Source: Malacoraja senta
Taxonomy: Eukaryota
Length of the DNA stretch: 64,000 nucleotides
Assembly: GCA_038087875.1 (NCBI GenBank)
Contig: CM075991.1
Coordinates: 9,116,001-9,180,000 of the forward strand
Direction: 5' to 3'
Part shown: piece by piece, positions 2,590 through 62,855 of the stretch
How positions within the stretch are numbered: the stretch's first letter is position 1
Layout of the letters: every line of letters starts with the position of its first letter
Translations under genes and position numbers: made by a program
Notes under the pieces: generated by a model
The model's database searches: none
What the model was told of the DNA's origin: nothing
The model's input: only the letters and a program-made list of their open reading frames with translations

Positions 2590-4535
2590 GGAATATAACC
2601 TATGCTGTACCCAAAACAGACAGTGAAAAGGGCGTTATTAACTAATCTGGTTAGTTGATTTGTCCACAGTAAACTGCTCCTACTGCAGATTAGTGGCAGG
2701 GGAATTTGAAGGGGGGTTGGCAGGTGGGATTAAGGGGTGGCACAGCGGTAGAGTTACCACATTACAGCGCCAGATATCCGGGTTCGATCCTGACTACGGG
2801 TGCTGTCTGTACGGAGCTTGTACGTTCACCCTGGGACCACGTGGGTTTTCTCCGGGTGCTCTGGTTTCCTCCCACACTCCAAAGACGTGCAGGTTTGTAT
2901 GTCAATTGGCTTCTCAAAAAGTCAAAGTATCCTTTACTGTCATTCAGACCTTTCGGTCTGAACGAAATTTCGTGCCTTGCAGTCATACATATAATAATAA
3001 ATAACAAAAACACACAATAAACACAAATTTAACATCCACCACGGTGAGTTCACCAGGCACCTCCTCGCTGTGATGGAAGGCAAAAGTCTTAAAGTCTTTG
3101 TCTCTTTGTCTCTGTAAATTGTAAATTGTCCCTCGTGTGCTGGATAGTGATAGCGTGTGGGGATCTCTGGACAGTGCGGATTCGGCGGGCCGAAGGGCCT
3201 GTTTCCGCGCTCTGTCTCTAAAGTATATGCGTGGTCATGATCAAAAGAGATGGGGCTCTGCTGGGGTTAATTCAATGAAATATTTATTGGTGCTGTGCAA
3301 TAGTACAGCGTTAAACCAAGATTTCAAGGGGATTTCAAATCCATTAAGTTTGAGAACTTAAGTTTGAGAACCTTGTCCTTTGTCTGTAGGATCATGCCAG
3401 TGTACAGAGTTATGCTGCTCGGCACGGACTCGGTGGGTCAATGAGGTCACTGGCGGCTGCTCCTCTCGCAGCTGTTCGCCCTCTCAATTCAATGATTCAA
3501 TGATATTTAATCATCACATGTACCGTGGTTCAGGGAAATGCTTTGTTTTGCGTACAACCCGGTAAAATCGAGCAGCAGACCTCGCCCAGGCAATACACAA
3601 GGGGCGCCACGTTTTGGTGCTGACAATGTTACAAATGTTATCCAAACGGTCCTACCTACTGCCTCTACTGCCTGCCTCTGCACATGGCAAAGGGACTCCT
3701 CCCCACGCCCCCCACCCCCAAGCTGGGTCCCCCCTTCGTACTCCGCATCCCCTCGCCGGGCACCTCTCCGAGGATCCACCTCGCTCTCCGACAACCCTCC
3801 TCGGCTATATCTGTGATCCACTCCCGCACACAGTTTTAATGTTAATTTCCGACGTGTATTATTCGGGCTGCGAATAGTTCTCTGGGAGCAGAACCCCATC
3901 ATAACCTAGAGAACCCCCCCCCCCCTCAACTTGCTGCCTTTCGTGAGCTCCATCCATTCTCTCACTGCGTCTCTGCAGAGCTTCAGAAGAGGATAAGGTA
4001 CACAAAAATGCTGGAGAAACTCAGCGGGTGCAGCAGCATCTATGGAGCGAAGGAAATAGGCAACGTTTCGGGCCGAAACCCTTCTTCAGAAGAGGATAGT
4101 TAACTCAACCAGCCCTCCCGGTCTTTGACTATGAATGCATGTGCACTGGCAGAGTGCGTATCCAATTTATTTTATTTACTGCAAACACTGACTGTCTTAC
4201 AATTATTCCAACTCCAAAAACTTGGGCCAATCGTTCTGCCAGATAACACAGCTGAGGAAGCCAACCATTTCTTGGCTGTGGTTCAACTTAAATCTGTCCC
4301 AAATGCCAGAGACAAAACACAAATAGGTGAGGCCCAAGGAACACGAGTTAGCAACATTGTTTTCTAAGGTGGTTTTGCTCTGGGAGGCAAGGAATTTCTC
4401 ATGTGAGTTGGGAAAGAGAGTCCAATGGTGAGAGTGGGACTGGTACTGTGAATCAAAGCAGCGCTTCTCTGGGGGCTGGAGCGAAAAGGTTTCTGTTCAC
4501 TGAACAAGAACTTGCTGGTTCTCTGCTGATGCACC

Positions 4536-4910
<375 letters not shown>

Positions 4911-6023
4911 GAGTTTTGGACTGTGCGTGTCTCCAGTCTGCCTTCCAGCTGGAGTCTGTGAACAATCCTTCCACACTGAGCCACTGTCAGTGATACGAGT
5001 CATATTATAGTGATATGGATCAATACACTGAGATTCACAGCCGCGCGCATTGCTCCCAATTCTTGATGTCACTGGAGCGGAACTTAATGAAACCACCGCT
5101 GGAGAAAACCAGACAAAACACAAGATTAATGGATGAAGGAGCGTTCAGTGTATGGATATCTTCCTTTGGAGACTGAAGATTGTATTAGAAGCCCTAATGA
5201 ATAGAAGGCTGCACTGTACTTTACACTGCAAGGCCTGTTGGCTTTAATAGAAATCACCTTTGCAGGTGCAACCCAATTTTCCGTCCTCATTTCCCCGAAA
5301 ATTGCAATTCTTGTCAACAGGGAGTCGCGTTAGAATCTTTGACACAAGACTTCTGTCAGGCAGCTTAATGTGTTTGTGTGTGCACAGCATATTGAGATTT
5401 CGCCAACCAGAAAGGGGCTTCTGGAAATGATCCTCGGGCCATGTGTGAATGAGAAGTTCAATTGTGCGTGCTCAATAACAACACACTCTCATCTAGCTGC
5501 TACAAGACTCTACCAAGTCTACATTTGGGGCGGCACGGTGGCGCAGCGGTAGAGTTGCCTTCCTTATAGCGCCAGGGACCCTGACTACGGGTGCTGTCTG
5601 TACGGAGTTTGTACGTTCTCCCCGTGACCGCGTGGGGTTTCTACAGTTTCCTCCCACACTCCAAAGGCTTAAGGGCCTGCCCCACTTGGCCGTCATTTGC
5701 GTCTCATTTATGCATCGTAATATTTGTAGGTATTAGGTGGATTGGAAGTGATAGGTGGATACAGGTGTGGGGAGGGTTTGATTGTCAGATGGGTGGAGGA
5801 AGGCCGGTGATGGGAGGAAGCCAAAAGGGCTTGAGATACATAGAGAAGAGGCACAAAACGTGAAGCTAGATAAAAGGAATGCAGGTAAAAGGGATGGAGG
5901 AGTAACAATTCAGGCCCTTGGGAGAGACCACGAACCAAATGTATGTCCCTTGCCTCCTCCACTGTCAGATTGAGACCCAACCCGAATTGGAAGGACAACA
6001 CCTCATATTTCGCTTGGACAGCT

Positions 6024-6558
6024 TCATCATCATCGGCGGTCACTCGAAACGAGTATGACTGTCCTCTCCTCTCCATAGGGTCGTCTACTTGTGGGTCTGC
6101 AGATGTCTGTAGAGGCTGATCCACGATCCACACACCTTGGTGCAACGTGGGCAGTGGAGACTGGCGGTGGTTGGTAGTCGTCGAGCCCCCTTCTCTCTCT
6201 CTCTCCTTACGGTGCTGTCGCTTTGTCTCTGCGACACGGCGTAGTTCCGTTTCGTGACGTGCGGCTCCTTCCTGCACGGATTTCCTCCAGGAGCGCCTGT
6301 CCGGTGCAACGTGCTCCCAGTTGCTCGATGTGATGTGGAATTTCTTCAGACTGCTCTTGATGTTGTCCTTGCAGCGTTTCCTTGGCCCGCCGGGGGGCTC
6401 GCCGACCTTCCTTCAATTGAGAGTACAGGATTTGTTTAGGGAGACGTGTGTTGGACATGCGGATGACATGGGCAAGTCCATCGAAGTTGGTGCTGCATTA
6501 TTGTGGTGGTGATGCTGGTCATGTTGGCTTCCTCCAAAACGCTGATGTTGGTGCGTTT
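6024..6558 (-). mobile_element. RTE-clade LINE 3' fragment
   Basis: RLPKQILYSQLKEGRR..W..DRRSWR..CPRCTKVC..LYRHLQTH; (gat)n tail. Confidence 0.8.
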
Positions 6559-8060: not shown

Positions 8061-8658
8061 AAATTTCTGGCCCTGATTCTGAGGCCAGATCATTATCTAC
8101 AAATATCCCTCTTTAAATAAACAAAACATTATTGTTGCATCTAGCAGTCGATGTGAACCTAGAGGCATGGTGGAGCATGTTAGTTGAGAGATACCACGTG
8201 GAAGCAGGGTCAAGTCCACCCCTGCCAGTGATCACCTGTTCGCACTCGTTCTACATTATCCCACTTTTCCATCCATTTCCTACCCACTAGGAACAATTAA
8301 CATCTTTGGAATGTGGGAGGAGACCCATGCAGTCACAGGAAATAGGCACAAACACCACACAGACAGCACCCGAGGTCAGGATCGAACCGGGGCGTCCTGT
8401 GTTGTGAGGCATCAGCTCCACCAACTCTGCCATGCTGCTGCGTCACTCTCACTCTGCTGCCCCATAGCATCTAGTCATTCACAATCGCACCATGGAAGAT
8501 ATTGGTTGGTAGAAAGACGTAAAATGCTGGAGTAACTCAGCGGGACAGACAATAGACAACAGTCTGAAGAAGGGTTTCGGCCCGAAACGTTGCCTATCTC
8601 CTTCGCTCCATAGATGCTGCTGCACCCGTTGAGTTTCTCCAGCATTTTTGTGTACCAG

Positions 8659-11986: not shown

Positions 11987-12206
11987 AGACAAAAATGCTG
12001 GAGAAACTCAGCGGGTGCAGCAGCATCCATGGAGCTAAGGAAATAGGCAACGTTTCGGGCTGAAACCCTACTTCAGTCTGAAGAAGAAGGGTTTCGGCCC
12101 GAAACGTTGCCTATTTCCTTCGCTCCATAGATGCTGCTGCACCTGCTGAGTTTTTCCAGCATTTTTGTCTACCTTCGATTTTCCAGCATCTGCAGTTCCT
12201 TCTTAA
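11987..12206. mobile_element. Fold-back Penelope terminal-repeat mini-element (family A)
   Basis: Inverted copy joined to a sense copy at ttcagtctgaag. 12-bp TSD gcagtaaatggt at 11975-11986 and 12207-12218. Confidence 0.85.
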
Positions 12207-13009
12207 GCAGTAAATGGTGTAGTTGGGTGCAGTGGGCATGGAGAATGTGGTGGGCTGAAGTGCCTGTTTCTTTGCTATACAACTGTCTGATTCGAATAAC
12301 TGTATTGCCAGTAATGTCAGGAAGTGTATAGACAGCGCGAGGACTCAGCCTGAAGAAGGGTCTCGTCCCAAAATGTCACCTATATCTTTTCTCCAGAGAT
12401 GCTGCCTGACCCGCTGAGTTACTCCAGCACCTTGTGTCTATCTTTGGTGTAAACCAGCATCTGCAGTTCCTTCCCACACATGTCAGTAAATGTGCTGTTT
12501 AAATGGAAATATTTTTAGTGATGTATAAACTTTAACTATTTCCTGGATTTAACAGTTGTGGCACAGTGGCTCAACGCTGGTGTTGCTGCCTTACAGCGCC
12601 AGAGTCCGTGGTCAAACCTTACTTACGGGTTCTGCCTGTGCGGTATTTGTACGTTCTCCCTGTGACCTTGTGAGTTTTCTCCTGGTGCCCCCGGTTTCCT
12701 CCCACACTCCAAAGACTTGCAGGTTTCTAGGATGATTGACCTATAAATTTTCCCTAATGTGTAGGATTGTGCTGGTATAGGGGTGGTTGTTGGTTGACAC
12801 GGACTCAGTGGGCTGAAGGGCCTGTTTCCACGCTGTATCTCCAAAGTTTAAAGTAGCACCAGGACATCAGGGAAACTCTCAAGTGATTTCTTCAAGACCG
12901 ACAGTGGGGTCCTTCACATCCGCTTGAGAAAGCAGAAGGGCTTCCCAGTTCAGCTTCTCATCTGAGAGTCAGTCCTGCTGAAAGTCCCCCTGAAGTCCGA
13001 GAACACTGA

Positions 13010-13639
13010 TGCAATTATTAAGAAACATCAGCGCCTCTACTTCCTGAGAAGATTACGGAGAGTCAGTTTGTCAAGGAGGACTCTCTCTAACTTCTACAGG
13101 TGCACAGTAGAGAGCATGCTGACCGGTTGCATCGTGGCTTGGTTCAGCAACTTGAGTGCCCTGGAGAGGAAAAGACTACAAAAAGTAGTAAACACTGCCC
13201 AGTCCATCATCGGCTCTGACCTCCCTTCTATCGAGAGGAACTATCGCAGTCGCTGCCTCAAAAAGGCTGGCAGTATCATCAAGGACCCACACCATCCTGG
13301 CCACACACTCATCTCCCCGCTACCTTCAGGTAGAAGGTACAGGAGCCTGAAGACTGCAACGACCAGGTTCAGGAATAGCTACTTCCCCACGGCCATCAGG
13401 CTATTAAACTTGGCTCAGACATAACTCTGAACATTAATAGCCCATTATCTGTTATTTGCACTTTATCAGTTTATCAGTTTATTTATTCATGTGTGTATAT
13501 ATTTATATAAGGGTATATGGACACACTGATCTGTTCTGTGTTCATGCCTACTGTGTTCTGTTGTGCTGAAGCAAAGCAAAAATGTCATTGTCCTATCAGG
13601 GACACATGACAATAAACTCTCTTGAATCTTGAATCTTGA
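13010..13639 (+). mobile_element. Rex1/Babar LINE 3' fragment
   Basis: QRLYFLRRL..FYRCTVESMLT..DPHHPGH..LPSGRRYRS..FRNSYFPTAIRLLN; (cttgaat)n tail. Confidence 0.85.
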
Positions 13640-15883: not shown

Positions 15884-17639
15884 ATATCTCTATATGTGAA
15901 ATATATGATATGTGAAATATATATATGTGTGTATGTATGTGTGTATTTGTATGTATGCACATATACATATACACACATATGTAACATCAATGATTGATGG
16001 TAAAATTTGCCATTGCAATCAGTTCATCAGCATAGCCTTTGGCTACCTAAGTAAAAGAGTTTAGTTGAGTTTAGTTTAATGTTACGTTATTGCAAGTTAT
16101 GACCTCAAGTCAACAGAAACTCAAAGTCTGGGCAGTTGGGATCCATAGTTCATAACACATAGGAACAGAGTTAGACTATTCGGCCCTTTGAGTCTCCCCC
16201 GACTCCCTTGCTCATCAAAAAGCTATCAATCTTCGCTTGATCTACTCTGCAGTTCTAAGGCTTGGATTATCTAAAGCATTTGAGAAATATCAGCAATCCT
16301 GTTTCTACACGTTACCCGTCCATTTTCCTCCATGGATGCTGCCTGACCCACAGAGTTGGCCCAGTAGTTTGTAGAAACAAGGAACTGCAGATGCTGGTTC
16401 ACCAAGGGAAGATCCAAGAAGTCTGAAGAAGGGTCCCGACCCAAAACGTCGCCTATCCATGTTCTCCAGCGATGCTGCCTGACCTGCTGAGTTACTCCAG
16501 CACTTTGTGCTTTTCCTCCAGTAGTTCTCTTTTTGCTCAAGATTTAAGCATCTGCAGTCCCTTGTGACACCAATCTATTACCCCTGGACACGTTTAGACC
16601 AGGATTCGGCAATCAATACCACCTTGGCCAAGTTCAACCCAAATAATATCCCATTTCAGAATAACAACACTGAGTTTGTACATTCTCCCCGTGACCTGTA
16701 TGAGTTTTCTCCAGCTACCTTCCACACTCCAAAGACGTATAGGTTATTAGGCTGATTGGCTTGGTATAATTGTAAATTTTCCCTATTGTGTGTAGGATAC
16801 TGAGAGTGTGCGGGGGTCACTGGTTAGCGCGGACTTGATGGGCCGAAGGGCCTGCTTCCACATTGTATCTCTAAACTAAACTAAACTGAACTAATCTAAG
16901 CAATCAATAGTAATGCCAGTAACTTCCCAGTCAGTGCCCTGTCTGTGAATTCATTTTAATTACCGGACAGAAGTCTGAATCAATGTTTAAAAACCCAGGC
17001 GCATCTCGTGATTTGAACATACGTAATCCCTATCACAGCATAAACGCTTTGAGCAGGAGTTATTTTTAATCGGAATAAATTCACTGGATTGCAAATCCCA
17101 ATTGTCGATAATTAATAATTGGACGATGGTACAGATTGCAAGGCAGATGGAGGGGGATGAAGTTAGGAAGTTTTAATGCACGATCTTTCCCTGGCAAATG
17201 TATCAGCCGAGCACAAACTGCTGCAGGATCATTACGGCTATTTTTCTTCTAAGTGGGGCACTGCTCAACAGTCCTTTAATTTTAATCAGTAATGCATTTT
17301 ATAGGCAGAGCATCTTGTGTTGCTTTGCGGGCCAAGGCTGAGGCTCATCATAGATACACTTCCGGAGTGCTCATTAGAAGTACCCATGAACAATGCCAGG
17401 CTTACAACAAGGGAGATCCAACGGCTTAACTTCCGTAATAATGTTTACCAATGTCAAGAATAGGATTGTGTAAATAAATTTGTTATTTACTTTGACACAC
17501 ATGGAGGACATTCGGCCCATCAGCTCTGTGCCAGCTCGCAGCAGAGCAATCCCATGATGACCAATATCATCTCTTATCCCTCTGGGGGCCTTCAACCTGT
17601 ATTATCTTTCACACACTCATCAACTCCCTTTACTTACAC

Positions 17640-19423: not shown

Positions 19424-22221
19424 CCACACACAGCAGTGGACACCAACATTGGGTCTTTTTAAAGTGGAGATTGATGGGTTCTTGATTAGGAAGGGTGTCA
19501 AAGATTACGGGGAGAAGGCAAGGGAATGGGGTTGAGAGGGGAAAATAGATCAGCCATGATCGAATGGCAGAGCAGACTCGATGGGCCGATCGGCCTAATT
19601 CTGATTCGGTGTCTTATAGACATGAGATATTGCGAATTCGGAAGGTGGTTAAGAGTGGAATTTTTTGACTCAGTGATACGGTTGTCTCCTTAAATGGGAG
19701 GATGCCGTAGAATCAAACTTCTGAAGAAACTAAAATTGTTGGCCAGAAATAGTTAATATTTTCTCAGAGCCTTGTTCCAGAAATAGTTCAATTGAAATTG
19801 AATATTAATGATGTGTTCATTTATGCAAACATATTTGACCAGCTGATATAACTGTCTCTGGCAGCTCAATAGATTAAGTTTCTAATGAATTTACGCAGTC
19901 CTTTGTACCCAGAGACTGTAACTGACCAGAAAATCATTGCAAATTGTAAATTAGATTCCGGTTCACTTTCATCTGCACGAGAAGATAAAAAATATAGGTT
20001 ATATAGGCTATTCGAGCCTGCCCCTCTATTCAACAGGATAATGACTGATCTGCCCCAATCCTCATCTCCTCCTCCAATAACCCTCAATTTCCAAATCTTT
20101 CCAAAAAAATGATCAATGATCTGGCCATGCTGGAAAATTCCAGAGATTCGTTGGCCTCTGTGAAAAGAGGTACATCTACACACCTGTTTTAAAATGCCCG
20201 CCTTCTAATCTAACTATGTTCCCTCATTCTAGACTCTGCCAACAATGGAAATATCTTGAGTAAAAACTCAAAGTGCTGGAGTAACTCAGCGGGTCAGGCA
20301 TCGTCTCTCCGGAGAAAGACACAAAAAGCTGGAGTAACTCAGCGGGTCGGGCAACATCCCTGGAGTGGTGGCGTTTTGGAGGTCGAAGCCCTTCTTCAGA
20401 CTGAGAATCAGGGGAAAGGGAAACGAGAGATATAGAAGGTAAATAGGACAAATGAATGCAAGATATGCAAAAAGCAACAATGATCAAGGAAAGGTGGAGC
20501 CCACAATGGTCCATTGTTGGCTGTCGGTCTGTGGAGAACAGGGGTAGGCGATGTGTCATGTCGGGACCCCTCAGATTTTGTCTCTCGTGGAATTATCTTA
20601 CCCCTTTATGTTTCAACAAAATGACTCCTAAACTCCAAAGAAGAGTCGAGCTGCTGCCTCACAGGTCAAGAGAAGAAAGTTCAATCCTGACTTCGGGAGC
20701 TGGCTGTGTGGAGTTTGCAGGTTCTCCCTTTGACCACACGGTTTTCCTCTGGGTGATTCGGTTTCCTCCCACCTCCCAAAACTATGAAGGTAGACGAAAT
20801 GCTGGAGAAACTCAGCGGGTGAGGCAGCATCTATGGAGCGAAATTATCAATTTCCCAAAACCATGAGGCTTGGCAGGTTAATTGCCCCATTAATTTCTCC
20901 CAGTTTGTAGCTGAGTGGTAGTTGGAGGAGTCGATGGGAATGTGTGGGAGAATAAAATGTGATCTTATAATGGGGTTATTGGAGAACTGGCGCAGAAGAG
21001 GAGACGAGGACTTGGGCTAATCAGTCAATATCATTTTGAGAAGAGCAGCCTAAAGAGCCTATATATATATACCCTCCTCCTGTTCCTATATGTTTTGATC
21101 TTCTCATGCAGATGAAAGTGAACCAGATTCTAATTTACAATTTGCAATAAAATGGGGATCTTATAGGAACATATAAAATTCTTAAGGGATTGGACAGGCT
21201 AGATGCAGGAAAAATGTTCCCCATGTTGGGGGAGTCCAGAACCTAGGGTCACAGTTTAAGAATAAGGGGTAGGCCATTTACGACTGGGATGAGAAAAACG
21301 TTTCCACCCAGAGAGTTGTGAATCTGTGGAATTATCTGCCAAATCACTGGATGTTTCAAGAGGGAGTGAGATATAGCTCTTAGGGCTAATGGTATCACGG
21401 GATATGGGGAGAAAACAGGAACGGGGTACTGATTCTGGATGATCAGCCGTGATCATATTGAATGGCGGTGCTGGGTCGAATGGCCCTGCAACAATTTTCT
21501 ATGTTTCTATGACCACATGGGTTTCCTCCGGGTGATTTGGTTTCCTCCAACCTCCCATAACCATGAGGCTTGGCAGGTTAATTGTCCCGTTCATTTCTTG
21601 CAGTATTGTACGTAGCTGAATGGTACTTGGAGGAGTTGATGCGAATGTGTGGGAGAATAAAATGTGATTATTGTAGGATTATGACAAAAATGGAAGCTTG
21701 ATGGTTGGCATGGACTCAGTATGCCGACGGGCTTGTTTCCACAATGTATGACACTATGACAAATATAGAACTAATGTTCTTAAGCCACTTGTGTTAGAGG
21801 AATCATCTCATCCTGGAAATTAACCAAGTGAATCGTTTTTTAAAAACGATTTCCAGTGACAGTATGTTTTATTCTTAAATAAGGAGCAGGGTGGCTTCTT
21901 ATCTGCTGCTCTGTGCATCTGAGATCATATTGAAGATTGCAGGTAGACAGAAGGGTCTGAAGAAGGGTTTCGGCCCGAAACGTTGCCTATTTCCTTCGCT
22001 CCATAGATGCTGCCTCACCCACTGAGTTTCTCCAGCACTTTTGTCTACCTTCGATTTTCCAGCATCTGCAGTTCCTTCTTGAACATATTGATGATAAATA
22101 TGCGGAAGGTGGGTAGAAAAGGATAGGGAGGAGGAGGCAATGATTCAGTGATACTTTATTGTCACATGTACCCAGGTACAGTGAAATGCGTTGAATTGCA
22201 TACAATCTGGTAAAATCATAC

Positions 22222-23963
22222 AGATGGAAAAACATTTCTTCCATCGAACGTGTCCGAAGACAGGCAGCTTGATTTGTTACTAACACCTATTTTTTTAATT
22301 TTTTTTTAAATATTTTTATTTTATTAGAAGTATGTACAGTCATATGGCACAAAAGTGCCTAATATATATTGACATAATACATTTTATGTACAGCTTCTTG
22401 TTTTTTTAAATAATAAAAAAGAAAGAGAGAAAATAGATAATAAAAGATAGAAAAACGTGTGATATATAGTGTGTGATGGAAAAAGGGAGGAAAGAAGAAA
22501 AGTGAAGAGAAGATAGAAAGAGAAAGAGTAGAAAGTAAGAAATTAAGGAGATCGTTATTTATAATCTTGACCATCCCTCACCCAGTCCTGAAACAGTTAG
22601 CTTCTACAATTGTCGACAAATGGAGACCAACTCGTTAAGAATTGGTCTAATTTTTCTGTTAGGAGGAATCGCATTTCCTCAAGATTTTTTTATTTATTTA
22701 TTTATTTTTATTAATTTTTTTTTAAGAAGAAAAAGAAAAAAGTTAGATAATGAAAAATAGAAAAATGTGAGATATATAGTGTGTGAAAAAGAAAAATAAA
22801 GAATGAAAAAAGAAAGTTGAGACATAGAAAATAGAAGAAAGAGAATAAAAGAAGAGAAGAGAAGAAAAGAAAATAGAAGTAAGGAGATCATTTATAAGGT
22901 ACACAAAAATGCTGGAGAAACTCAGCGGGTGCAGCAGCATCTATGGAGCGAAGGAAATAGGTAACGTTTCGGGCCGAAACCCTTCTTCAGACATTTATCA
23001 GATCATTTATAATCTTGACCATCCGCAGTCACGGATTAGCTTTTACACCTGTTTTGCACCATATGTTTCCAAAAAGACGACAAATGGAGACCAACTCGTT
23101 ACGAATTGGTCAAATTTATCTATTAGGAGGAATCGCATTTCCTCAAGATGTGCGGTGTCCAACATGTTTGAAATCCACATTTTAAGCGTTGGTATGGGTG
23201 TATTTTTCCAAAATGTATGTATACGTTTTTTTGCCGTTAGTAACCCATAATTAAAAAAATAAATTTTGAGATGAGTTCAATTTATTTCCATCTTCCATTA
23301 CTCCAAATATAATCATTTCAGTATTAGGTTCCATTTTTATCTTGAATAATTTTGTAAATATTTCAAAAATATCACTCCAGAATTTATAAAGTTTTATGCA
23401 GGAAACAAAAGAGTGTGTTATAGTTGCATTTTGGGATAAACATTTATGGGGGACGTATTTGGATAGAATTTATTCAATCTAGTTTTTGAATAATATAATC
23501 TATGTAAAAATTTTAATTGAATTAAATTATTTCTTACATTAACTAACACCTATGAGAGAGAAGCGAGTGTTACCAAACTTCTGAATTCTCTGGGGTGGAA
23601 CCCTCTCCAAGACAGACATGAAGCTCACCGTTTGACCTGTTTTTACAAAATGTTAAATGGTCAGCTCGACATAGATTACAAGACCTACACCAAACCCAAA
23701 CCAATTAGGAGCAGACGAGGGCATTCGATCCAATTTGTGATTCCAGCTGCCAAGACAGATGTGTACAGCAATTTGTTCTTCCCCCGCACAATTAAAGCGT
23801 GGAATAATCTCCACCCTACTTTAGTTACCCAACCAGAGGCAACTAAATTTAAGGTAGCTCTTTCTTCCCAAAAAACCCTTCTGGCTTAAGTCCTCCCTCC
23901 ACCACCTCCAGTTTAAATTCCATTTGGAATATTTTGGAGGACCAAGAAACCAAGAACCAAGAA
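22222..23963 (+). mobile_element. CR1-group LINE 3' fragment interrupted by L1 pieces
   Basis: SSIERVRRQAA*FVTNTY|EREASVTKLL..FYKML..FFPRTIKAWNNL; (ccaagaa)n tail. Confidence 0.75.
22291..23541 (-). mobile_element. Composite of two L1/Tx1-like 3' fragments
   Basis: Two poly(T)-headed units (~22291 and ~22685) homologous to 6799-7262, enclosed by one TSD actaacacctat (22279-22290, 23542-23553). Confidence 0.8.
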
Positions 23964-24824: not shown

Positions 24825-25020
24825 ACACTGGAGTAACTCAGCAGGACAGGCAGCATCTCTGGATAGAAGGAATGGGTGACGTTTCGGGTCTGAAGAAGGC
24901 TTCAGACCCGAAACGTCACCCATTCCTTCTCTCCAGAGATGCTGCCTGACCCGCTGAGCTACTCCAGCTTTTTGTGTCTATCTTCGGTTTAAACCAGCAT
25001 CTGCAGTTCCCTTGCTACAT
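24825..25020. mobile_element. Fold-back Penelope mini-element (family B)
   Basis: ctggagtaactcagc..gggtgacgtttcgggtctgaagaaggcttcagacccgaaacgtcaccc..gctgagctactccag forms a near-perfect palindrome. Confidence 0.8.
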
Positions 25021-25434: not shown

Positions 25435-25758
25435 GAAGGTGGCGCAGCGGTAGAGCTGTTGTCTCACAGCGCCGGAGACCCGGGTTCGATCCTGGCCTCG
25501 GGTGCTATCCGTGCGGAGTTTGCACGTTCCCCTTGTGACCACATCGGTTTCCTCTGGGTGCTCCGGTTTCCTCCCACATCCCAAAGACGTGTGGGTTTGT
25601 AGGTTAATTGGCCTCTGTAAATTGCTTTCGGTGTGCAGAGAGTGGATGAGAAAATGGGATAGCATAGAACTACTGGTAGAACTAGTGTTAATGGGTGTTC
25701 GATGTGGATTGGTGGGCAGAAAGGCCTGTTTCCATTCTGCATCTCTAAACTAAACTAA
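25435..25758 (+). mobile_element. tRNA-derived V-SINE (HE1-like)
   Basis: A-box ggtggcgcagcgg, B-box ggttcgatcc, V-domain, (ctaaa)n tail. Confidence 0.8.
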
Positions 25759-31348: not shown

Positions 31349-31601
31349 GTACACAAAAATGCTGGAGAAACTCAGCGGGTGCAGCAGCATCTATGGAGCG
31401 AAGGAAATAGGCAACGTTTCGGGCCGAAACCCTTCTTCAGACTGGAGGAAATAGGCAACGTTTCGGGCCGAAACCCTTCCGGGTTTCGGGCCGAAACGTT
31501 GCCTATTTCCTTCGCTCCACAGATGCTGCTGCACCCGCTGAGTTTCTCCAGCATTTTTTGTGTACCTTCGATTTTCCAGCATCTGCAGTTCCTTCTTTAA
31601 C
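31349..31601. mobile_element. Fold-back Penelope terminal-repeat mini-element (family A)
   Basis: Inverted plus sense arms. 15-bp TSD actgtattggttaag at 31334-31348 and 31602-31616. Confidence 0.85.
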
Positions 31602-33750: not shown

Positions 33751-34478
33751 CCTCCTAAATTTCACCAGCACCCCCTCTCCTCCCCCCCCTCCCACCATCC
33801 CCCAATTTCACCAGCACCCCCTCTCCCCCCCCCTCCCACCTCCCCCAATTTCACCAGCACCCCCTCCCACCTCCCCCAATTTCACCAGCACCCCCTCTCC
33901 CCCCCCCTCCCACCATCCCCAATTTCACCAGCACCCCCTCTCCCCCCCTCCCACAACCCCCAATTTCACCAGCACCTCCTCTCCCCCCCTCCCACAACCC
34001 CCAATTTCACCAGCACCTCCTTTCCACTCACCCCCTCCCCCAATTTCACCAGCACCCCCTCTCCCCCCACCCCCACACAACCCCCACTTTCACCAGCACC
34101 CCCTCTCCCCCCCTCCCACCTCCCCCAATTTCACCAGCACCCCCTCTCCCCCCACCCCCACACAACCCCCACTTTCACCAGCACCCTCTCTCCCCCCCTC
34201 CCACCACTCACAATTTCACCAGCACCCCCTCTCCACCCACCCCACAACCCCCAATTTCACCAGCACCCCCTTTCCACCCACCCCCTCCCCCAATTTCACC
34301 AGCACCCCCTCTCCCCCCACCCCCACACAACCCCCACTTTCACCAGCACCCCCTCTCCCCCACAACCTCCAATTTCACCAGCACCCCCTCTCCCCCACAA
34401 CCTCCAATTTCACCAGCACCCCCTCTCCCCCACAACCTCCAATTTCACCAGCACCCCCTCTCCACCCCCACCCCCCAA
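33745..34478. repeat. C-rich minisatellite in LRRTM4 intron 1 (core ccccaatttcaccagcaccccctctcccc)
   Basis: About 20 tandem copies of the tttcaccagcacc core with variable C-rich spacers. Confidence 0.95.
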
Positions 34479-34509: not shown

Positions 34510-34652
34510 GTAGGAATGAACTGCAGATGCAGTAGCATTTACACCGAAGGTGGACACACAAATGCTGGAGAAATTCAGCGGGACAGGCAGCGTCTCTGGA
34601 GAGAAGGAATGGGTGACGTTTCAGGTCGAGACCCTTCTTCAGATTATAACAA
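34510..34652 (-). mobile_element. Penelope mini-element (family B) in LRRTM4 intron 1
   Basis: Minus-strand tctgaagaagggtctcgacctgaaacgtcacc unit. 13-bp TSD taataacgggtgt at 34497-34509 and 34653-34665. Confidence 0.8.
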
Positions 34653-34672: not shown

Positions 34673-37400
<2,728 letters not shown>

Positions 37401-41817: not shown

Positions 41818-43635
41818 ACAGGTTTGTAGGTTAATTGGCTTCGTTAAAATTGTAAATTGCGTGTAGGATAGTGTTTGTGCACGGGACGATCGCTAGTCGG
41901 CGTGGTCTCAGTGGGCCGAAGGGCCGGTTTCCATGCTGCATCTCTAAAGTCCAAAGATTCTAGCAGAACCTATGCAAGGCCACTAATGATGGCCTTAGAC
42001 AGCTGCAAAAGCACATATATATGAGGATGAAGTGACGGCCAAGCATCTGAAGAGCTGCCAGATCTTTGAACAGTGCCAAGGCATGTTTCTTTAGGCACCC
42101 CGAGCAATGTTATGGAACTTGGGTTAATGACTTGAATGAAACTTAACAGCTCCCGCAATGCAGTAATGGAAGAAAAAAGGCTTGCATTTAGGTAGCGCAT
42201 TGGTTATCTCAGTCCTGACATCCAGAGGGACTATAATCACAGGGCCTTTGAAACGTGATCACTCAGCATTGTAATGTACAATATTTTAGAAGCCAAATTG
42301 GTGCCACAGAGAGTAAAGTGATAAATAATGAGTCCGGGGTAAGAAAGAGTCTCGACCTGCAATGTCACCTATCCAAGTTCTCCAGAGAGGCTGCCTGACC
42401 TGCTGAGTTACTCCAGCACTTTGTATCCATAAGTTTATAAGCCATAGGGGCAGAATTAGGCCATTTGGCCCATCGAGTCTGCTCCACCATTCAATCATGG
42501 CTGTTCTATCCTTCCCTCTCAACCCCTGCCATTCACCTGCCTTCGCCCCATAACCCATTGACACCCATACTAATCAAGAATCTGTCAATCTCCCATCTAA
42601 AAAATGCCCAAATGATTTGGCTTCCACAGCCATGTGGCAATGAATTCCACCGATTCCACACCATTTTGCATTATGATCAGATAGTCTGATTGCCAATATT
42701 GGTCGACGGTTAAGAATTCAGACCAAGAAGACACCAAGGAGAAATATCACTGCAGGCAGAGGAAACTGCAGATGCTGGAATCTTTTTGCAAAAACACCAC
42801 GTACTGGTGGAACTCAGTGGGACAGACAGCATCTGTGGAGGGAATGGACAGGTGATGTTTCGGGTCGGGTTCCTTCTTCAGACCGGATATATTGTTGTCA
42901 CCATATGGTCCAGGCGGGCAGGCAGGCCCTCATCTGACAAGACTTCACCTCCAACAGTGCAGCGCTCTCTCCCTCAGAACTGCAGTGGAAACTCGGCCGA
43001 GACTGCTTCATTGGAGAAGGAGTCAGGTCCACCCACAAGCTTGTGGTATTAAGAATAAAACAAGATTACAAATAATAAAAATAACTAACTATTCAGTTTT
43101 CTTATTATTGGGCTGTAAGCTTCACTGACAGGGACAATGCTGACTGTTATCGGTGCTAAGAAGCTGCTTGCTGAAAGTACATATTGCCGTGTCTTATCAG
43201 TACTAAGGAGCTGTTTGATGATGCACGTATTACTACTATCTGCTATAGATGTTAATGCCCCTGTCCCACTTAGGAAACCTGAACGGAAACCTCTGGACAC
43301 TTTGCGCCCCACCCAAGGTTTCCGTGCGGTTCCCGGAGGTTCCCGGAGGTTTTTGTCAGTCTCCCTAATGGTCGAAAGTGGTTTCTGCTTCTTCTAAGTT
43401 CCGGTGATTATTTCAAAAAATTCAAAACCGGCCGCGACTAAAAATATGTTGCCGTTTAAAAAATCGGTGATTTTTTAGTTGAAGCCGGTTGCGATGCTAG
43501 TTGAAGGTGGTTGCCGGAGGTTGCAGGTAGTGGAAGGTAAGACCTCCCTGGTGGAATAAAACTGGGTGAAAAAAAGGTCTTACCTTCCACTACCTGCAGC
43601 CTCCGGCAACCACCTTCAACTAGCATCGCAACCTA

Positions 43636-46915: not shown

Positions 46916-48954
46916 ATGTTCAGCGCGGACTTGAAGGGCCGAGATGGTCTGTTTCCGTGCTGTAATGGTTATATGGTTATATGGTTATATGATGGTAAAT
47001 GCGCAAGTTAAGAAAGAATTGTTAGAAGATGAATGTATATAAAATGGAGATAGACCAGTGATATTAAGTCCAGAATAGTTAAGCACCGTAAGGGCTAGGG
47101 TATGAGGCACAGCAGAGGAGTAGGGAACAGCATTGGTGTCAACAAGCCAGCCTGCCGACCTACGTGGTCCAGGTTTTGGGGGCTATAAAGCGTCACGAGA
47201 TTACGAATAAACTTGGATGACTAATAAGCCATTGCTGATGAATCTCTGTCTGTATTATTATCCTATTAGTGGTCATTAATATGACCAAATGGGGGAATGT
47301 GGTATTAAGAATAAAACAAGATTACAAATATTAAAAAGAACTAACTATTCAGTTTTCTTATTATTGGGCTGTAAGCTTCACTGACAGGGACAATGCTGAC
47401 TGTTATCGGTGCTAAGAAGCTGCTTGCTGAAAGTACATATTGCCGTGTCTTATCAGTACTAAGGAGCTGTTTGATGATGCACGTATTGCTACTATCTGCT
47501 ATAGATGTTAATGCCCCTGTCCCACTTAGGAACCCTGAACGGAAACCTCTGGAGACTTTGCGTCCCACCCAAGGTTTCCGTGCGGTTCCCAGAGGTTGCC
47601 GGAGGTTTTTGTCAGTCTCCCCAATGGTCGAAAGTGGTTGCCGGAGGTTGCAGGTAGTGGAAGGTAAGACCTCCCTGGGGGAATAAAACTGGGTGAAAAA
47701 AAGGTCTTACCTTCCACTACCTGCAACCTCCGGCAACCACCTTCAACTAGCATCGCAACCGGCTTCAACTAAAAAATTACCAATTTTTTAAACGGCAACC
47801 AAGGCAAGACAAGCACCCATAGTCAGGATCGAATCCGGGTCTCTGGCACTGTACGGCAGCAACTCTACCGCTGTGTCACTGTGCAGCTCATTTGTAAAGG
47901 ACATTTCTTTTAAAGTGCAGAAAAGATGCACTTACCCATGGAAATGCCGGAAATGCCAGAAATTCTGGTTGAAGAATCCAATGCAGAGGAGAGAGAACTT
48001 CTAAAATCGAAGTGATGCTATTTCTCAATGCATTAGTATGGTTGGGTTTACTGTAAGGAAGGTGTTCGATTTTCCAGTGTGTTAATTCTGTGCACCTGGA
48101 TTAGTGAATGGTATGTTCAGCCCATCTAGGAGTTGACTATGTATTGTGAGTGCGTTGTTTATGTTCAGGGCCAGACTAGGTTACGGATCCGGGTTAATTT
48201 TCTCTTAACGACCTCAGTTCATAAGTTCGAGGAGTGGAATTAGGCCGTTAGGTCCATCATGTCTACTCCATCATTCAATCATGGCCAATCTATCTTTCTC
48301 TCTCAACCCCATTCTCCCGCCTACTCGCCATAACCCCTGATGTCCTTACTAATCAAGAATCTGTCACTCACCACCTTAAAAAATATCCATAGACTTGGCC
48401 CAAATTGACATGTGATGAAACGTTAGTGGTTTGCGTGAATTGACTGTGAGCCCAGCTGTGTTGGTGCTGAGAATTCCCCTGTAAGCAGTTGAAAAAGAAG
48501 TGAATCGAAGATTAAAATATGGTTTAATTTTAATTCTCCCATCAAGGCAAGACTTGTTATCCTATGCCTGCAATGTAAGCAATTCAATTTCAACACCAAA
48601 TTATAGGTATTTGACCTCCTTAATTTATTGTATTGAATTAAATACGGCCACGCAGAACAGGCGATAAAAACTTATCTTTGGTTGCCAGCACTAAATACTA
48701 ATTTGGTCACCATTGTATTTTCTTCCTGCTTGCTTATTTGCATCATGTCAGATTACGTTGATGGTAGACGCAAAATGCTGGAGTAACTCAGCGGGACAGG
48801 CAGCATCTCTGGAGAGAAGGAATGGGTGACGTTTCGGGGTCGAGACCCTTCTTCAGATTACGCTGATGGTTCTGTGTGCAACAAATGTCTATGTGTTCAG
48901 TAGGTTCAGGAGTTCAATGTCAACTTAATGGCTTGGGACACTCTGGAGGTCAGA

Positions 48955-49765
48955 TCATGCACCCCACCAACCGTCACATACAACAAGTGATCCTCCGTCA
49001 GTTTCGCCACCTCCAACGTGACCCCACCACTCGCCACATCTTCCCATCTCCCCCCATGTCTGCCTTCCGCAAAGACCGCTCCCTCCGTAACTCCCTTGTC
49101 AATTCTTCCCTTCCCTCCCATACCACCCCCTCCCCTGGTACTTTCCCTTGCAACCGCAAGAGATGCAACACTTGTCCCTTCACCTCCCCCCTCCACTCCG
49201 TTCAAGGACCCAAGCAGTCGTTCCAGGTGCGACAGAGGTTCACCTGCATCTCCTTCAACCTCATCTATTGCATTCGCTGCTCTAGATGCCAGCTGATCTA
49301 CATCGGTGAGACCAAGCGGAGGCTTGGCGATCGTTTCGCCGAACACCTCCGGTCGGTCCGCAATAACCAACCTGAACTCCCGGTGGCTCAGCACTTCAAC
49401 TCCCCCTCCCATTCCGTATCTGACCTCTCTGTCCTGGGTCTCCTCCATGGCCACAGCGAGCAACACCGTAAATTGGAGGAAATGCACCTCATATTCCGCT
49501 TGGGCAGTCTACATCCTGGGGGTTTGAACATTGAATTCTCCCAATTCTGCTAGCCCTTGCTGTCCCCTCCCCTTCATCAGCCATCTGGTTATCTCCTCCC
49601 CTCCCCCAGCCCTCGGGCTCCTCCTCCGCCTTTTTCCTTTTTTCCTTTCTTCTCCCCACCCCCTATCAGTCTGAAGAAGGGTTTCGGCCCGAAACGTTAC
49701 CTATTTCCTTCGCTCCATAGATGCTGCTTCACCCGCTGAGTTTCTCCAGCATTTTTGTGTACCAT
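48955..49765 (+). mobile_element. Penelope-like retroelement 3' fragment: GIY-YIG endonuclease plus terminal repeat
   Basis: ORF 48876-49553 has CNRKRCNTC..FTC..NLIYCIRCSRCQLIYIGETKRRLGDRFAEHL..VAQHF..LEEMHLIFRLGSLHPGGLN, the Penelope GIY-YIG C-terminus. It is followed by the repeated ctgaagaaggg..gtgtacc unit. Confidence 0.9.
49667..49702 (+). ncRNA. Minimal type I hammerhead-ribozyme-like motif in the Penelope terminal repeat
   Basis: CTGAAGA(49671-77)-A-GGGT[TTCG]GCCC-GAAA-C-GTT: CUGANGA box, 4-bp stem II with UUCG loop, GAAA box and palindromic AACGTT in place of stem III. Stem I is weak. Confidence 0.7.
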
Positions 49766-57679: not shown

Positions 57680-59669
57680 TAGAGCCAGGATTTTACCATA
57701 AATGCCATGTGCCTTTTCATGCCTTTTTTGATGAATTCACTGGGATAATTCCTTTTTCATGACCGAGTGCCTAAATCAGCCTTTTTGTTTGCCATTTTGC
57801 TGAAAGGTCGTGCTATTTTCTCTAGTTGTACCGTGATTACAATGACGTTTTCTATGTTAACACGTTAATATTAATGTTATTATTAACGTGTTAACATAGT
57901 ATAACTTACAAGAAAACTTCCACCACCGGGGCGAAACCGGGTGTGCCACCTTCGAATGAATAGAATGTTTAAGAAAGAACTGCAGATGCTGGAAAAATCG
58001 AAGGTAGGCAAAAAATACTGGAGAAACTCAGTGGGTGAGGCAGCTTCTATGGAAAGAAGGAATAGGCGACGTTTCAGGTCGAGACCCTTCTTCAGACAGA
58101 TGTGGGTGGGTGCAGGAAACAGAAAGGAAGAGGCGGAGACACTAGGACTAGAAGGAGAGCTGGGAAAAGGAGGAGGGAGAAGACAAGGGCTATCTAAAAT
58201 TAGAGAAGTCAATATTGATACCGCTGGGGTGTAGACTACCCACGCAAATTACCCAAACTTGTCTCCTCACTACATTCACTGCTGGCTCCAGTCGCAAATC
58301 TGCGTTTGCGAATATCTGTGCAAGGCATTCATTGATGCTGGAATTCCACTGTGGAAATTGGAAAACAAATCTCTCAGAGGTTTTTTAGAGAAATACACAG
58401 AGGAACATATACCAAGCGAGTTATCATTACGGAAAAAATATGTTGACAGTAACTTCAACATTGTTGTGCAGAAAATTAGAGATGAAGTTGCATGCAACAA
58501 AATATGGATCACAATAGACGAGACAACCGGTGCTGGGGGGAGATATGTTGCCAATGTGGTCATTGGTACACTGGAGGCAGGTCAACCATCAAAGGAGTAT
58601 TTGTTGACATTGGAAGTATTGGAGAAGTCAAACAGCTCAACCATTGCTCAGTTGTTTACATCTTCACTTGCTGTACTTAGGCCAGAAGGTATCAAACATG
58701 AGAATGTTCTTCTATTTGTGACAAAGTTTTATTCCCCAAAATGTTGCATTTGACACGCTTAGCTCAAGGACTTCATAGAATTGCCAAGCACATACGTAGC
58801 TTGTTTCCAGATGTCGATCGCCTAGTTTCCAATGTCAAGAAAATCTTCCTCAAAGCACTTATTTTTCCTGTGCAGTTGTTTAAGGAAATGGCCCCCTAGA
58901 TTCCGCTTCCTAGTCAGCCTCTTTTGACTAGGTGGGGTACATGGCTCTCTGCTGTACTCTGCTATGCTGCAAATTTTGAAAAGATAAAAGAAATCGTCAA
59001 CTGTTTTGAAGAAGAAGAATCTGCTGCAGTCAGGATCGTCAGTGAAATCATGCAGAAAAAGTCCCTCCACCGCGATCTTGTGTTTATTGCTTCCAATTTT
59101 GCAAACTTCCCACAAGCTATAACTTCCCTTGAGAAACGTGGCGAAACATTAGTGAATAACTTGCAGGTTTTCAACAAAGTAACTGACATTAAGTTCCTGG
59201 CAATGTCGGTAGAGACATGCAAGGAAAATGTGAGAGAGTAATTTTAGCTAGCAAAGAAGAAATACAAAGCATAGCTAAAGTTCTCAAAGGTAGTTGTAAT
59301 GCACAATATATGGATATGAATATAGTCTGTAGCTTGTATCGGGTATGCACCAGTGACCTCAGCTGAGTATAGCTTGTTTCGGGTATGCACCAGTGACCTC
59401 AGCTGAGGTAGAAATAAGTTTTTCACAATTGAAGCATATTCTGTCCGACAGACAGCATAGTTTAACACCAGATAACTTGAAAAAAAATGCTAGTAATTAT
59501 GTGCAACCAGGCAACTTTGGTCATTTAATGTAGTATACCTTTATATTATCATTTTAAACCATATTTTGGTGGTGGAAATAAATGCCTTTTTCATGCCTTT
59601 TTGTAATTTTATTATGCCTTTTTGCCTGCCTATTTCAGTGTTTTTTAACGCCTAAACACCCTGGCTCTA
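57680..59669 (+). mobile_element. hAT-superfamily DNA transposon with disrupted transposase
   Basis: TIR TAGAGCCAGG / CCTGGCTCTA; 8-bp TSD gcgatcac at 57672-57679 and 59670-59677. ORF pieces AFIDAGIPLWKLE..IWITIDETT..GRYVANV (58259-58753) and TRWGTWL (58924-59241). Interrupted by a minus-strand Penelope fragment at ~57965-58245. Confidence 0.9.
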
Positions 59670-59904
59670 GCGATCACGGTTCGACACCTTCCCAAAACAT
59701 TTAGACTAATATGGGATAGGAGTGGTCACGACCCGAAACGTCGCCTATTTCTTCTCTCCATAGATGCTGCCTCACCCGCTGAGTTTCTCCAGCATTTTTG
59801 TCCACCTTCGTTGAGTCTCATTGTATGTAACTCATTTTCACCTAGGCCACAGCTACCAATGGCCTGGCTCCTTTATCATCGTTACTTTTTCATTTGTTCT
59901 ATAT

Positions 59905-60432
59905 CAGGATTGAGGAAGGACATTCTTACTATTGAGGGAGTGCAGCGTAGGTTCACAGGGTTAATTACCGGGATGGCGGGACTGTCATATGTTGAGAGAA
60001 TGGAGCGGCTGGGCTTGTATACTCTGGAATTTAGAAGGATGAGAGGGCATCTCATTGAAACATGTAAGGATATTAAGGGTTTGGACACGCTAGAGGCAGG
60101 AAACATGTTCCCGATGTTGGGGGGGAGTCCAGAACCAGGGGCCACAGTTTAAGAATAAGGGGTAAGCCATTTAGAACAGAGATGAGGAAACACTTTTTCA
60201 CACAGAGAGTTGTGAGTCTGTGGAATTCTCTGCCTCAGAGGGCGGTGGAGGCCAGTTCTCTAGATGCTTTCAAGAGAGAGCTAGATAGGGCTCTTAAGGA
60301 TAGCGGAGTCAGGGGATATGGGGAGAAGGCAAGAATGGGGGTACTGATTGTGGATGATCAGCCATGATCACATTGAATGGCGGTGCTGACTCGAAGGGCA
60401 GAATGACCTACTCCTGCACCTATTGTCTATTA
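59905..60432 (+). mobile_element. CR1 LINE 3' fragment
   Basis: IEGVQRRFT..LGLYTLEFRRMRG..RVVSLWNSLP. Further CR1 pieces at ~21150, 39590, 50690, 51420, 55003, 56460 and 61035. Confidence 0.85.
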
Positions 60433-62030
60433 TCTCTCTATATCACCATCTATATCTCCTGTTTCCCTTTCTGCTGAATCTCAGTCTGAAGAAGGGCCTT
60501 GACCCGAAGCGTCACCTATTCCTTCCCTCCAGAGATGATGTCTGACCCGCTGAGTTACTCCAGCTTTTTGTGTTTACCGAATCTCCTCAATCTGTTGATG
60601 GTAACAGTATTCCCATTAATTTGCCGTTCAAATATTGGGTTCCTTGGATAATTTGAGATCATTTATCCGCCACAATATGCTGTTCCACGATAAGCCATCC
60701 GAAAACCTCCAGAAGCTGGGAGAAGATTTATATTTTAAACCATTATTTGTACACATTATTCCTTGTGTTTGAACAATAAACTCATGTGACTGAACAAAAT
60801 TCATGCGACTGCATAAAATGGTCTTTAACTAGCTTCACACAGTATTGAGCTGAATATCTTGTCAGTGCAAATGGGCTTGCTGTTGTTGGTATGCTGAAGT
60901 TCCAGTGTACCAAACTGCACCGAGATTGCTTCCCAATTATTCAATCTTGAGAAAGCAACATGCAAATGGAGCCAAGGTGTTTCTTGTAAACAGCCCTTGG
61001 GGTCTTTGTCACGAAGCTGCTCAGAATTTATAAAGAAGTCTGTGGATATTTTTAAGGCAGAGATAGAGAATTCTTGATTAGAACGGGTGTCAAGGGTTAC
61101 AGGGAGAAGGCAGGAAAATGGGATTAGGAGGCATTGAATGGCGGAGTCTGTGGAATTCTCTGCCTCAGAGGGAGGTTCTCTGGATGCTTTCAAGAGAGAG
61201 CTCGATAGGGCTCTTAAAGATAGCGGAGTCAGGGGATATGGGGAGAAGGCAGGAACGGGGTACTGATTGGGGATGATCAGCCATGATCACATTGAATGGC
61301 GGTGCTGGCTCGAAGGGCCGAATGGCCTACTCATGCACCTATTGTCTATTGGACTCGATGGGCCGAATGGCCTAATTCTACTCCTATAACTTGTGAAGTG
61401 GGGGAAGAAAAAACAGTTCAATGTCTATTAGCCAAAGGACGAAAGGGGCAGCACAGTGGCGCAGCGCCAGAGGGCTGGGTTTGATCCAGACTACAGGTGC
61501 TGTCTGTGCGGAGTTTGCACGTTTTCCCTGTGGCCGCATGGGTTTTCTCTGGGTGATCCAGTTTCCTCCCACACTCCAAAGACGTACAAGTTTGTCAGTT
61601 ATTTGGCTTCGGTAAAAATTGCCAAGTTGTTAATTGTCCCTAGTGCGTGTAGGATATTGTTAATGTGCGGGGATCGCTGGTCGGCGTTGACTCGATGGGC
61701 TGAAGGGCCTATTTCCACCCTGTATCTCTTACTAAACTAAACTAAAAAATCAAATATTGCTACTTTAATCCCTTCTATTTTCCTCCAGAGGAAGGAAGTT
61801 GAAATCCTTTCTGAATTCCTATTCCTTTTTACTAATCTTTTTATGCAGTTTGAAGTTTTTTGGATCAGCCCACCCTTGTAACTTATGGTTGGTCAGCAGA
61901 AATGAAGTACCTTCTGTCGAGGCACCAGCTTCCTTCAAGCCTCCAACATTATCTTTGCATTGAGAAGCCTCGAGTTAGCGGCAAGTACCACACAGTGGGA
62001 AAGTACCACAGTTGTAAAAACCTCTCCTCA

Positions 62031-62361: not shown

Positions 62362-62855
62362 TTAAGTGAACTTCAGGTGAAGAGACAATTGATGGGGTGT
62401 GATGAGAGGCTGTTTCCCCTAATTGAAGTGAGTGTCTGTAAATAGAGGGTATAGTCTCAGAGTAAAACCTCAGCCATTCACTTCTGAGTTGAAAAGAACC
62501 AACAGCACAGTGGCACAGCTGGTAGAGCCGCTGACTCACGGCGCCAGGGACCCGGGTTCAATCCTGACCTTAGGTGCTGTTTGTGTGGAGTTTGCATGAT
62601 CTCCCTGTGATTATGTGGGTTTCCTTCGGGTGCTCTGGTTTCCTCCCAAATTCCAAAGACGTGCGTGTCTGTAGGATAATTGACCGCTGTAAATTGCCCC
62701 TAATGTGTAGGGAAAGTGGTAAAACGTAGAACTGATGTACGGGTGATCGATGGTCAGCGTGGACTCAGTGGGCCAGAGGGCCTGTTTCCATATTGGATTT
62801 CCAAACTCGACTAACCATATATCAGGCACAACGTAATTGCAGAATTGTTTAGAAA

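Follow-up and report, generated by a model that had tools for sequence, protein, structure and literature searches.

The 64,000-nucleotide stretch of the Malacoraja senta genome analysed here (the window) carries, just behind a fragment of an endonuclease ORF, a short motif with the letters of a minimal hammerhead ribozyme, pieces of which recur throughout the window and the genome. The locus raises the question of what so many hammerhead-like units represent, i.e. ribozymes at work across the genome or the leavings of an element that carries the motif. Our analyses make it highly probable that the motif belongs to the pLTR of a young Penelope-like retrotransposon and that most of its copies are stumps, likely derived from uncut RNA and probably inert.

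The letters at 49671-49698, CTGAAGA-A-GGGT[TTCG]GCCC-GAAA-CG-T-T, are those first described in the sequence-only reading of this DNA, which was also correct in describing a stem III reduced to palindromic ACGU in a core of type I order (Table 1). Its statement that one copy directly follows a GIY-YIG ORF holds, with the core starting 118 nt past the stop of the GIY-YIG-bearing ORF fragment, as does its association of such minimal type I motifs with Penelope elements, the motif lying after an RT/GIY-YIG ORF and recurring in ~3.9-kb tandem arrays. The GIY-YIG region of the window fragment scores 22.5 bits with Pfam PF01541 (cut-off 22.6), and the whole 5'-truncated copy is identical to a long copy elsewhere in the genome (L021) at 788 of 803 aligned bases (98%). 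Many other copies continue for ~35 nt, the 'tail', past the proximal 3' end site. An Rfam scan of the window gave no hammerhead among 80 matches at E<=5, as is expected for a motif without stem III.

Table 1. The Penelope-like element copy behind the ORF fragment, its parts, and the other hammerhead cores of the window.
Feature	Position	Strand	Basis or remark
5'-truncated family-A Penelope-like element (ORF end, 3' UTR, pLTR hammerhead, proximal 3' end)	48960..49763	+	identity to L021
C-terminal ORF fragment	48960..49553	+	RT-EN linker with C-x4-C-x2-C, then GIY-YIG endonuclease at ~49260-49361
Pyrimidine-rich 3' UTR	49554..49665	+	length and sequence differ between families
TCAGTCT, edge where stump 5' ends stop	49666..49672	+	A at -3 from C3; 5'-end counts
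Stem I 5' strand, GU	49669..49670	+	pairs with 49699-49700 (AC; GC in other copies); 2 bp only
Minimal hammerhead core	49671..49698	+	sequence reading; features as in PMC4209133
Core: CUGAAGA	49671..49677	+	sequence reading
Core: extra A	49678	+	sequence reading
Core: stem II, GGGU/UUCG/GCCC	49679..49690	+	sequence reading
Core: GAAA, then palindromic CG, U16.1 and U17	49691..49694 (GAAA)	+	sequence reading
Predicted scissile bond	49698/49699	+	sequence reading; features as in PMC4209133
3' pLTR part, conserved, to the proximal of two 3' end sites	49699..49763	+	3'-end clustering
Exact family-A core on stump	8564..8591	+	stump sits inside an older family-B copy
Exact family-A core on stump	21957..21984	+	junction GGGT makes a chance 4-bp stem I
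Exact family-A core on stump	4062..4089	-	15-bp target duplication that shares 7 nt with the start of the core
Exact family-A core on stump	22963..22990	-	13-bp target duplication
Exact family-A core in compound inverted/tandem stump	31413..31440	-	exact descriptor
Family-B core	34615..34642	-	G-U at 10.1-11.1
Family-B core	48828..48856	-	extra C in stem II
Family-B-like core	58068..58095	-	G-U at 10.1-11.1

An open frame of 1222 codons in the L021 long copy contains an RT and, at its C-terminal end, a GIY-YIG domain (RVT_1 E=6.5e-6, GIY-YIG E=0.0015; both below the Pfam curated cut-offs), which is the single-ORF arrangement of an EN+ Penelope-like element; its atlas neighbours, at 0.98, lie in clusters with the same RT and GIY-YIG architecture. 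The C-x4-C-x2-C read in the translation between RT and EN has the form of the Neptune linker feature, Cx2-5CxxC (PMC8557442), and by this motif the linker is Neptune-like. Other features of the element are likewise those of Penelope-like elements, including tandem units of ~3.9 kb with a hammerhead at each junction (L025, L030), inverted 5'-truncated partners (L021, L027, L028), two clusters of 3' ends ~35 nt apart with target duplications, and the location of the hammerhead in the pLTR. The motif has CUGANGA, GAAA and UH in type I order, and the unpaired base after A9, the G10.1-C11.1 pair and the palindromic 15.2-16.2 are present in all five family consensuses. Because the build of the element and these listed traits of published minimal hammerheads (PMC4209133) apply, we assign the motif to the pLTR hammerheads of Penelope-like elements. 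Family A is young, since the best 150 genome matches to the window ORF fragment are 98-100% identical to it; older GIY-YIG fragments, with 3' UTRs of differing length, lead into the same hammerhead motif. In the long frame the first ATG lies 163 nt after C3, where it overlaps a donor-like AG/GTATG and is preceded by an upstream frame of 41 codons (L025 2720-2735; L021 3505-7173); Pro/Ser-rich repeats occur among the N-terminal 480 residues.

A profile made from 14 window copies detects 45 fragments in the window, a few of which are opposite-strand partial matches at the same palindromic locus; the repeat is indeed dispersed, as the sequence-only reading had it, while its count of about 25 units was too low. 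Its impression that many units retain the full motif does not stand, as only six of the 45 fragments, all of family A, match the exact descriptor. These are the family-A sites that it had listed (8564+, 21957+, 49671+, 4089-, 22990- and 31440-) with the exception of 12078, which has a 3-nt insertion in its core, and none of its five family-B sites is exact (G12 is lost at 16422 and C3 at 30565). Consensus building further replaces its two families with at least five related ones.

Genome-wide, the exact descriptor identifies 57,766 cores, 43,468 of them also carrying the 2-bp stem I, and there are 18,581 exact family-A cores; the reversed control of each pattern gave 0. Profile searching of 80 evenly spaced 10-kb genome samples (800 kb) returned 326 fragments, which extrapolates, very roughly, to 800,000 in 1.94 Gb, and a looser core pattern had 63 matches in the same 800 kb versus 0-1 in five shuffles. 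The sampled density of one per ~2.5 kb agrees with the earlier estimate of one unit per 2-3 kb, and the claim that the units mostly lack the ORF is also supported: among 131 core-bearing copies of all families, 16 are preceded by UTR-like sequence, 24 are inverted and 91 directly adjoin DNA that looks like target. Between 13 and 19 of 79 family-A copies extend into the UTR or ORF, and 29 of 93 short family-A copies are inverted. Head-to-head inverted stumps have stem II or the palindrome TCAGTCTGA at their centre (window 12056-12104, 24885-24913 and 31440-31500; L194, L208). Some stump 5' junctions carry jump-back duplications covering the initial 12 nt of the core (window 21945-21984; L152, L175, L183); these duplications create a chance 4-bp stem I and show re-annealing of the cDNA end at stem II. 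Two tandem arrays of ~2.4-kb period have a family-A stump in each unit (G000:C1:3870354-3892440 and 4008186-4030204).

Comparison between families and comparison between copies give different pictures of how the motif is maintained. Once two noisy clusters were set aside, the 131 core-bearing copies yielded four older consensuses with good support, and family A is the fifth. Across these, variable positions number 0/15 in the core, 1/8 in stem II, 2/4 in the loop, 8/20 in the linker and 7/34 in the tail, with H17 alternating between C and U. The hammerhead as a whole is thus less variable than the adjacent linker (1/25 versus 8/20, p=0.006), whereas the difference between core and 3' tail is not significant (p=0.08), and the five families are close relatives. 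The sequence-only reading had named, as a result that would speak against it, a core no more conserved than its flanks across families, and at family level the invariant core does not give that result; its covarying stem II is not borne out, the sole stem II change being one-sided (U-A to U-G) with no two-sided change, although every change is compatible with the structure. All five consensuses retain two CpGs that have decayed in 20-34% of individual copies. In the copies, by contrast, A/T sites have changed at similar rates in the core (52/925, 5.6%) and in the invariant flank (158/2347, 6.7%; p=0.27, 160 full-length fragments), and G12 is lost in 50 of 155 copies via the CpG at C11.1-G12. 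By these sequence comparisons the dispersed copies decay neutrally, and the combination of like decay of core and flank with a core that is constant across families implies selection on the source elements rather than on the dispersed copies. An apparent excess of core conservation in the copies was an artefact of selecting on the core and of a 1-nt offset between families, and disappeared with gapped, family-aware alignment.

The ends of the stumps are informative as to the RNA from which they were copied. We took the first 100 exact matches to the family-A tail motif, in the first 7 Mb of one contig; 18 in the two 2.4-kb tandem arrays were skipped (after one from each array had been kept), 82 were mapped and three near-duplicates were dropped, giving 79 copies, numbered with C3 as 0 and the scissile bond as +28. 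The 5' ends lie at -6 to +7 in 43 copies, downstream of +7 in 16 and upstream in 20; of these last, one is at -16, 13 reach the ORF and six were stopped by the aligner at poly-T indels and are probably longer. A single end falls at -7 to -30, and five are within 3 nt of the scissile bond. The stop rate at the edge is 6.9% per nt, versus 0.2% upstream and 0.4% downstream. Stumps are 100-135 nt long, and their 3' ends lie at two sites ~35 nt apart, matching the known tail. Both 3' classes stop at the same 5' place (12/25 and 30/53), which rules out a length ruler as the cause of the stop and shows that it is set by the site. Of 64 non-inverted short copies, 30 have target duplications of at least 10 bp, mostly 11-15 bp; among the 23 junctions that target duplications resolve without microhomology, 18 are at -6 to +5. 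In genome-wide counts with patterns that place two non-matching letters ahead of the element, 56 ends are at -7, 678 at -4, 1,380 at -3 and 2,296 at -2; the 41-fold drop from -2 to -7 is an upper estimate, since the -7 pattern covers family A proper only and those for -2 to -4 include a sister subfamily. At the scissile bond there are 203 ends, near the background of 141 at +31. Were cut RNA the common template, stumps starting at the bond would be expected; as none are enriched, the templates are likely to have been mostly uncut. This agrees with in vitro work on an Anolis element, for which uncut RNA is reported as the main RT substrate, with two internal RT starts (PMC11167929).

These results can be accommodated by a mechanism in which the RT of the element would prime at a nicked target, start inside the pLTR at either 3' site, a choice of internal starts shown in vitro for the Anolis element, and stop at a fixed site in front of the hammerhead. 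The most likely cause of the stop would be that the template RNA begins there, at the initiator-like TCAGTCT; stumps would then be run-off products of the 5' pLTR, and long copies would come from priming in the downstream pLTR. The motif itself is held by selection in the active lineages, where it would cut only with help from a dimer and/or the protein of the element.

We propose tentatively, as a plausible reading, that an initiator joined directly to the front edge of the hammerhead sets the start of the transcript, such that priming in the 5' pLTR gives a 'strong-stop'-like run-off cDNA that inserts alone. The initiator consensus is YYANWYY, which TCAGTCT fits, though its CAG resembles a splice acceptor too, and TCAGT is retained in family A and in the four well-supported family consensuses. 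The conservation of TCAGTCT across families with differing UTRs, together with the reported location of Penelope-like element promoters in the pLTR, points to an RNA start at the edge. With a start at about -3, the RNA could form a stem I of 2-3 bp only. Against such a start, the 5' edge tapers over -6 to +7 rather than falling at one base, and D. virilis Penelope is described as starting well upstream of the hammerhead, with an intron between (PMC4209133, PMC2377424). An untemplated cap-type G is not enriched at -3 junctions (8 G, 12 A and 10 T in the first 30 genome-wide rows, by eye); a cap-derived extra G, hinted at in a small sample, is not borne out at -3 genome-wide, and the G excess at -2 reflects largely jump-back duplications and inversions. 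Nor do the published rows of animal minimal hammerheads support a general upstream initiator, as 10 of 44 fit YYANWYY by eye, about the number expected by chance.

A possible, if doubtful, alternative is that the pile-up of 5' ends marks not an RNA end but a block to RT on a longer RNA, caused by a helix between the core strand and the upstream pyrimidine tract or by a bound protein. When upstream sequence is included, the predicted fold does pair the UTR pyrimidine tract with the core strand; the ends are spread over 14 nt, including +2 to +7, as a block might produce, and inversions cluster at stem II and the palindrome. However, the mode of the ends (-2 to 0) lies beyond the predicted helix (+3 to +10), the stop rate falls ~30-fold after -6 despite continuation of the pyrimidine tract, and in vitro the insertion product length of the Anolis element is reported to have tracked the template 5' end.

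We consider it unlikely that CAG/TCTGA acts as a splice acceptor, as in D. virilis Penelope, with splicing supplying the 5' strand of stem I or setting the stump edge. Immediately upstream there are a pyrimidine tract, the CAG and, for family B, a CTGAC resembling a branch site; a donor-like AG/GTATG is present about 160 nt downstream, and the end of the Penelope intron has been mapped to helix I (PMC4209133). Nevertheless, the predicted joint has 0 genomic matches, no upstream exon is shared at 30 of 30 loci, target duplications directly abut the element, many ends retain the AG, and use of the candidate donor would still give a stem I of 2 bp and a mismatch. No splice joint that completes stem I occurs among the joints listed for four contig sets (113 others stand outside the list).

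That the dispersed copies are active ribozymes, cutting host or element RNA as dimers, is improbable. Tens of thousands of copies preserve all core nucleotides, the extra A, the G10.1-C11.1 pair and the ACGU palindrome, and some junctions make a 4-bp stem I. Stem I is otherwise short: GU with AC or GC, 2 bp, in 63 of 92 cores having stem II (30 of the loci in this set having been chosen for their exact core) and 2 bp in the consensus of every family examined, with no family in the samples having a longer one. This is within the published range, at its weak end, helix I being of 2 bp in six of 44 published minimal hammerhead rows and usually of 3-6 bp (PMC4209133 supplement). Predicted folds disfavour the hammerhead, with stem II at a probability of 0.002-0.19 and the purine-rich core strand pairing instead with a downstream or upstream pyrimidine tract, and a dimer with stems II and III is calculated at -13.3 kcal/mol versus -29.8 kcal/mol for the co-fold optimum. 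Exact cores average one per 34 kb, so that sense-strand neighbours are rare. Published minimal hammerheads are reported as uncut when monomeric and as cutting weakly even when dimeric (PMC4209133), and the Anolis hammerhead as cutting only with protein (PMC11167929). With the neutral loss of the core and the lack of a 5'-end peak at the scissile bond, these findings argue against the claim that the dispersed copies are working ribozymes; the stumps are probably inert, and any cleavage by the motif would probably need help.

Finally, it is very doubtful that the short units are a separate, self-amplifying non-autonomous family (retrozyme or SINE-like), even though they far outnumber ORF-bearing copies, a few ~90-nt head-to-tail joints occur in contigs and retrozymes, including in one chondrichthyan, are reported as Penelope-like element derivatives, since the stumps agree with the autonomous element base for base, with 5' ends that are ragged, separate target duplications and no tandem monomer arrays in the loci examined. 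The 'amplified' ribozyme units of the sequence-only reading are better described as stumps of the autonomous element.

Comparison with known systems places the skate motif as a further case of the minimal hammerheads of metazoan Penelope-like elements (Cervera and De la Pena 2014, PMC4209133). As reported for these, it has a type I core, an unpaired base between 9 and 10.1, G10.1-C11.1 and a palindromic 15.2-16.2, and occurs mostly as single truncated copies, with opposite-strand pairs. It differs in its 2-bp stem I, with a 4-bp stem II, from the typical 3-6-bp stem I, and in its abundance, the 57,766 exact cores here comparing, with different descriptors, with ~4,000 in coelacanth and ~9,000 in Xenopus. 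Shark, skate or Callorhinchus terms do not occur in the searched part of the supplement of that paper. PAc, a Poseidon element of Anolis (Frangieh et al. 2024, PMC11167929), likewise has two internal RT starts giving an optional tail, a hammerhead upstream of them and uncut RNA as template. Its ORF starts at stem II, whereas the skate element has its first ATG 163 nt after C3 and a Neptune-like linker; the passages covered of the PAc account contain no pile-up of genomic 5' ends at the hammerhead. Neptune EN+ elements (Craig et al. 2021, PMC8557442) are described as having RT followed by C-terminal GIY-YIG, a Cx2-5CxxC linker, partial tandems, an inverted 5'-truncated partner and a 30-40-bp tail, as here, but the N-terminal region of the skate element, rich in Pro/Ser, is unusually long. 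In D. virilis Penelope (Schostak et al. 2008, PMC2377424) the pLTR holds a promoter with an Inr, as is proposed here, and, as in the skate element, the 2-bp helix I follows AG; a 75-nt intron there ends at helix I, with the start placed 46 nt upstream of the intron, while the skate genomic copies include no spliced form. Animal non-LTR retrozymes (bioRxiv 10.64898/2026.07.22.740005) are, similarly, short hammerhead-bearing sequences derived from pLTRs. They are described as tandem arrays of short monomers forming a family of their own, an organisation that we did not find; the skate copies are dispersed single insertions of the end of their parent element.

The kind of motif is therefore already known (PMC4209133), and what is notable here is its copy number and the map of 5' ends. 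We found no report of a 5'-end pile-up at Penelope-like element hammerheads, or of skate or shark examples, in the literature searched, which lay outside subscription journals, Repbase and bioRxiv supplements. The role of the hammerhead in endonuclease-bearing Penelope elements is described as still open (PMC8557442). In this regard, thousands of young insertion ends form an unusually large in vivo record, in which the predicted cut site is not enriched and a steep edge lies immediately ahead of the core, and support, from genomic data, the in vitro finding of an uncut RNA template; a young family with a long open frame makes the question tractable at the bench. If the stumps are run-off products of an RNA starting at the edge, this would explain both the mostly solitary state of Penelope hammerheads in animal genomes and the reduction of stem I to 2 bp in this element, and the insertion ends would be a map of the RNA of the element, whose in vivo templates were not ribozyme-cut.

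The window has several other features. A large coding exon of the LRRTM family lies at ~35400-36990 (+), with LRRTM2 as the best solved-structure match (E=2e-121). Two near-identical, near-perfect 107-nt palindromes (43507-43613 and 47634-47740), with miRNA-like hairpin scores below Rfam thresholds, probably represent a small inverted-repeat transposon. Another repeat that is abundant and dispersed (D9-D15) is tRNA-derived SINE-like (2736-2919, 25438-25621, 61433-61616, 62510-62693 and others), and presumably resembles shark SINEs. By eye, the open frame at 58235-58753 (+) looks like a DNA transposase fragment and those at 5708-6412, 12966-13424 and 59649-60152 (+) like C-terminal fragments of LINE RTs. 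A C-rich minisatellite with a unit of ~41 nt occupies 33784-34476.
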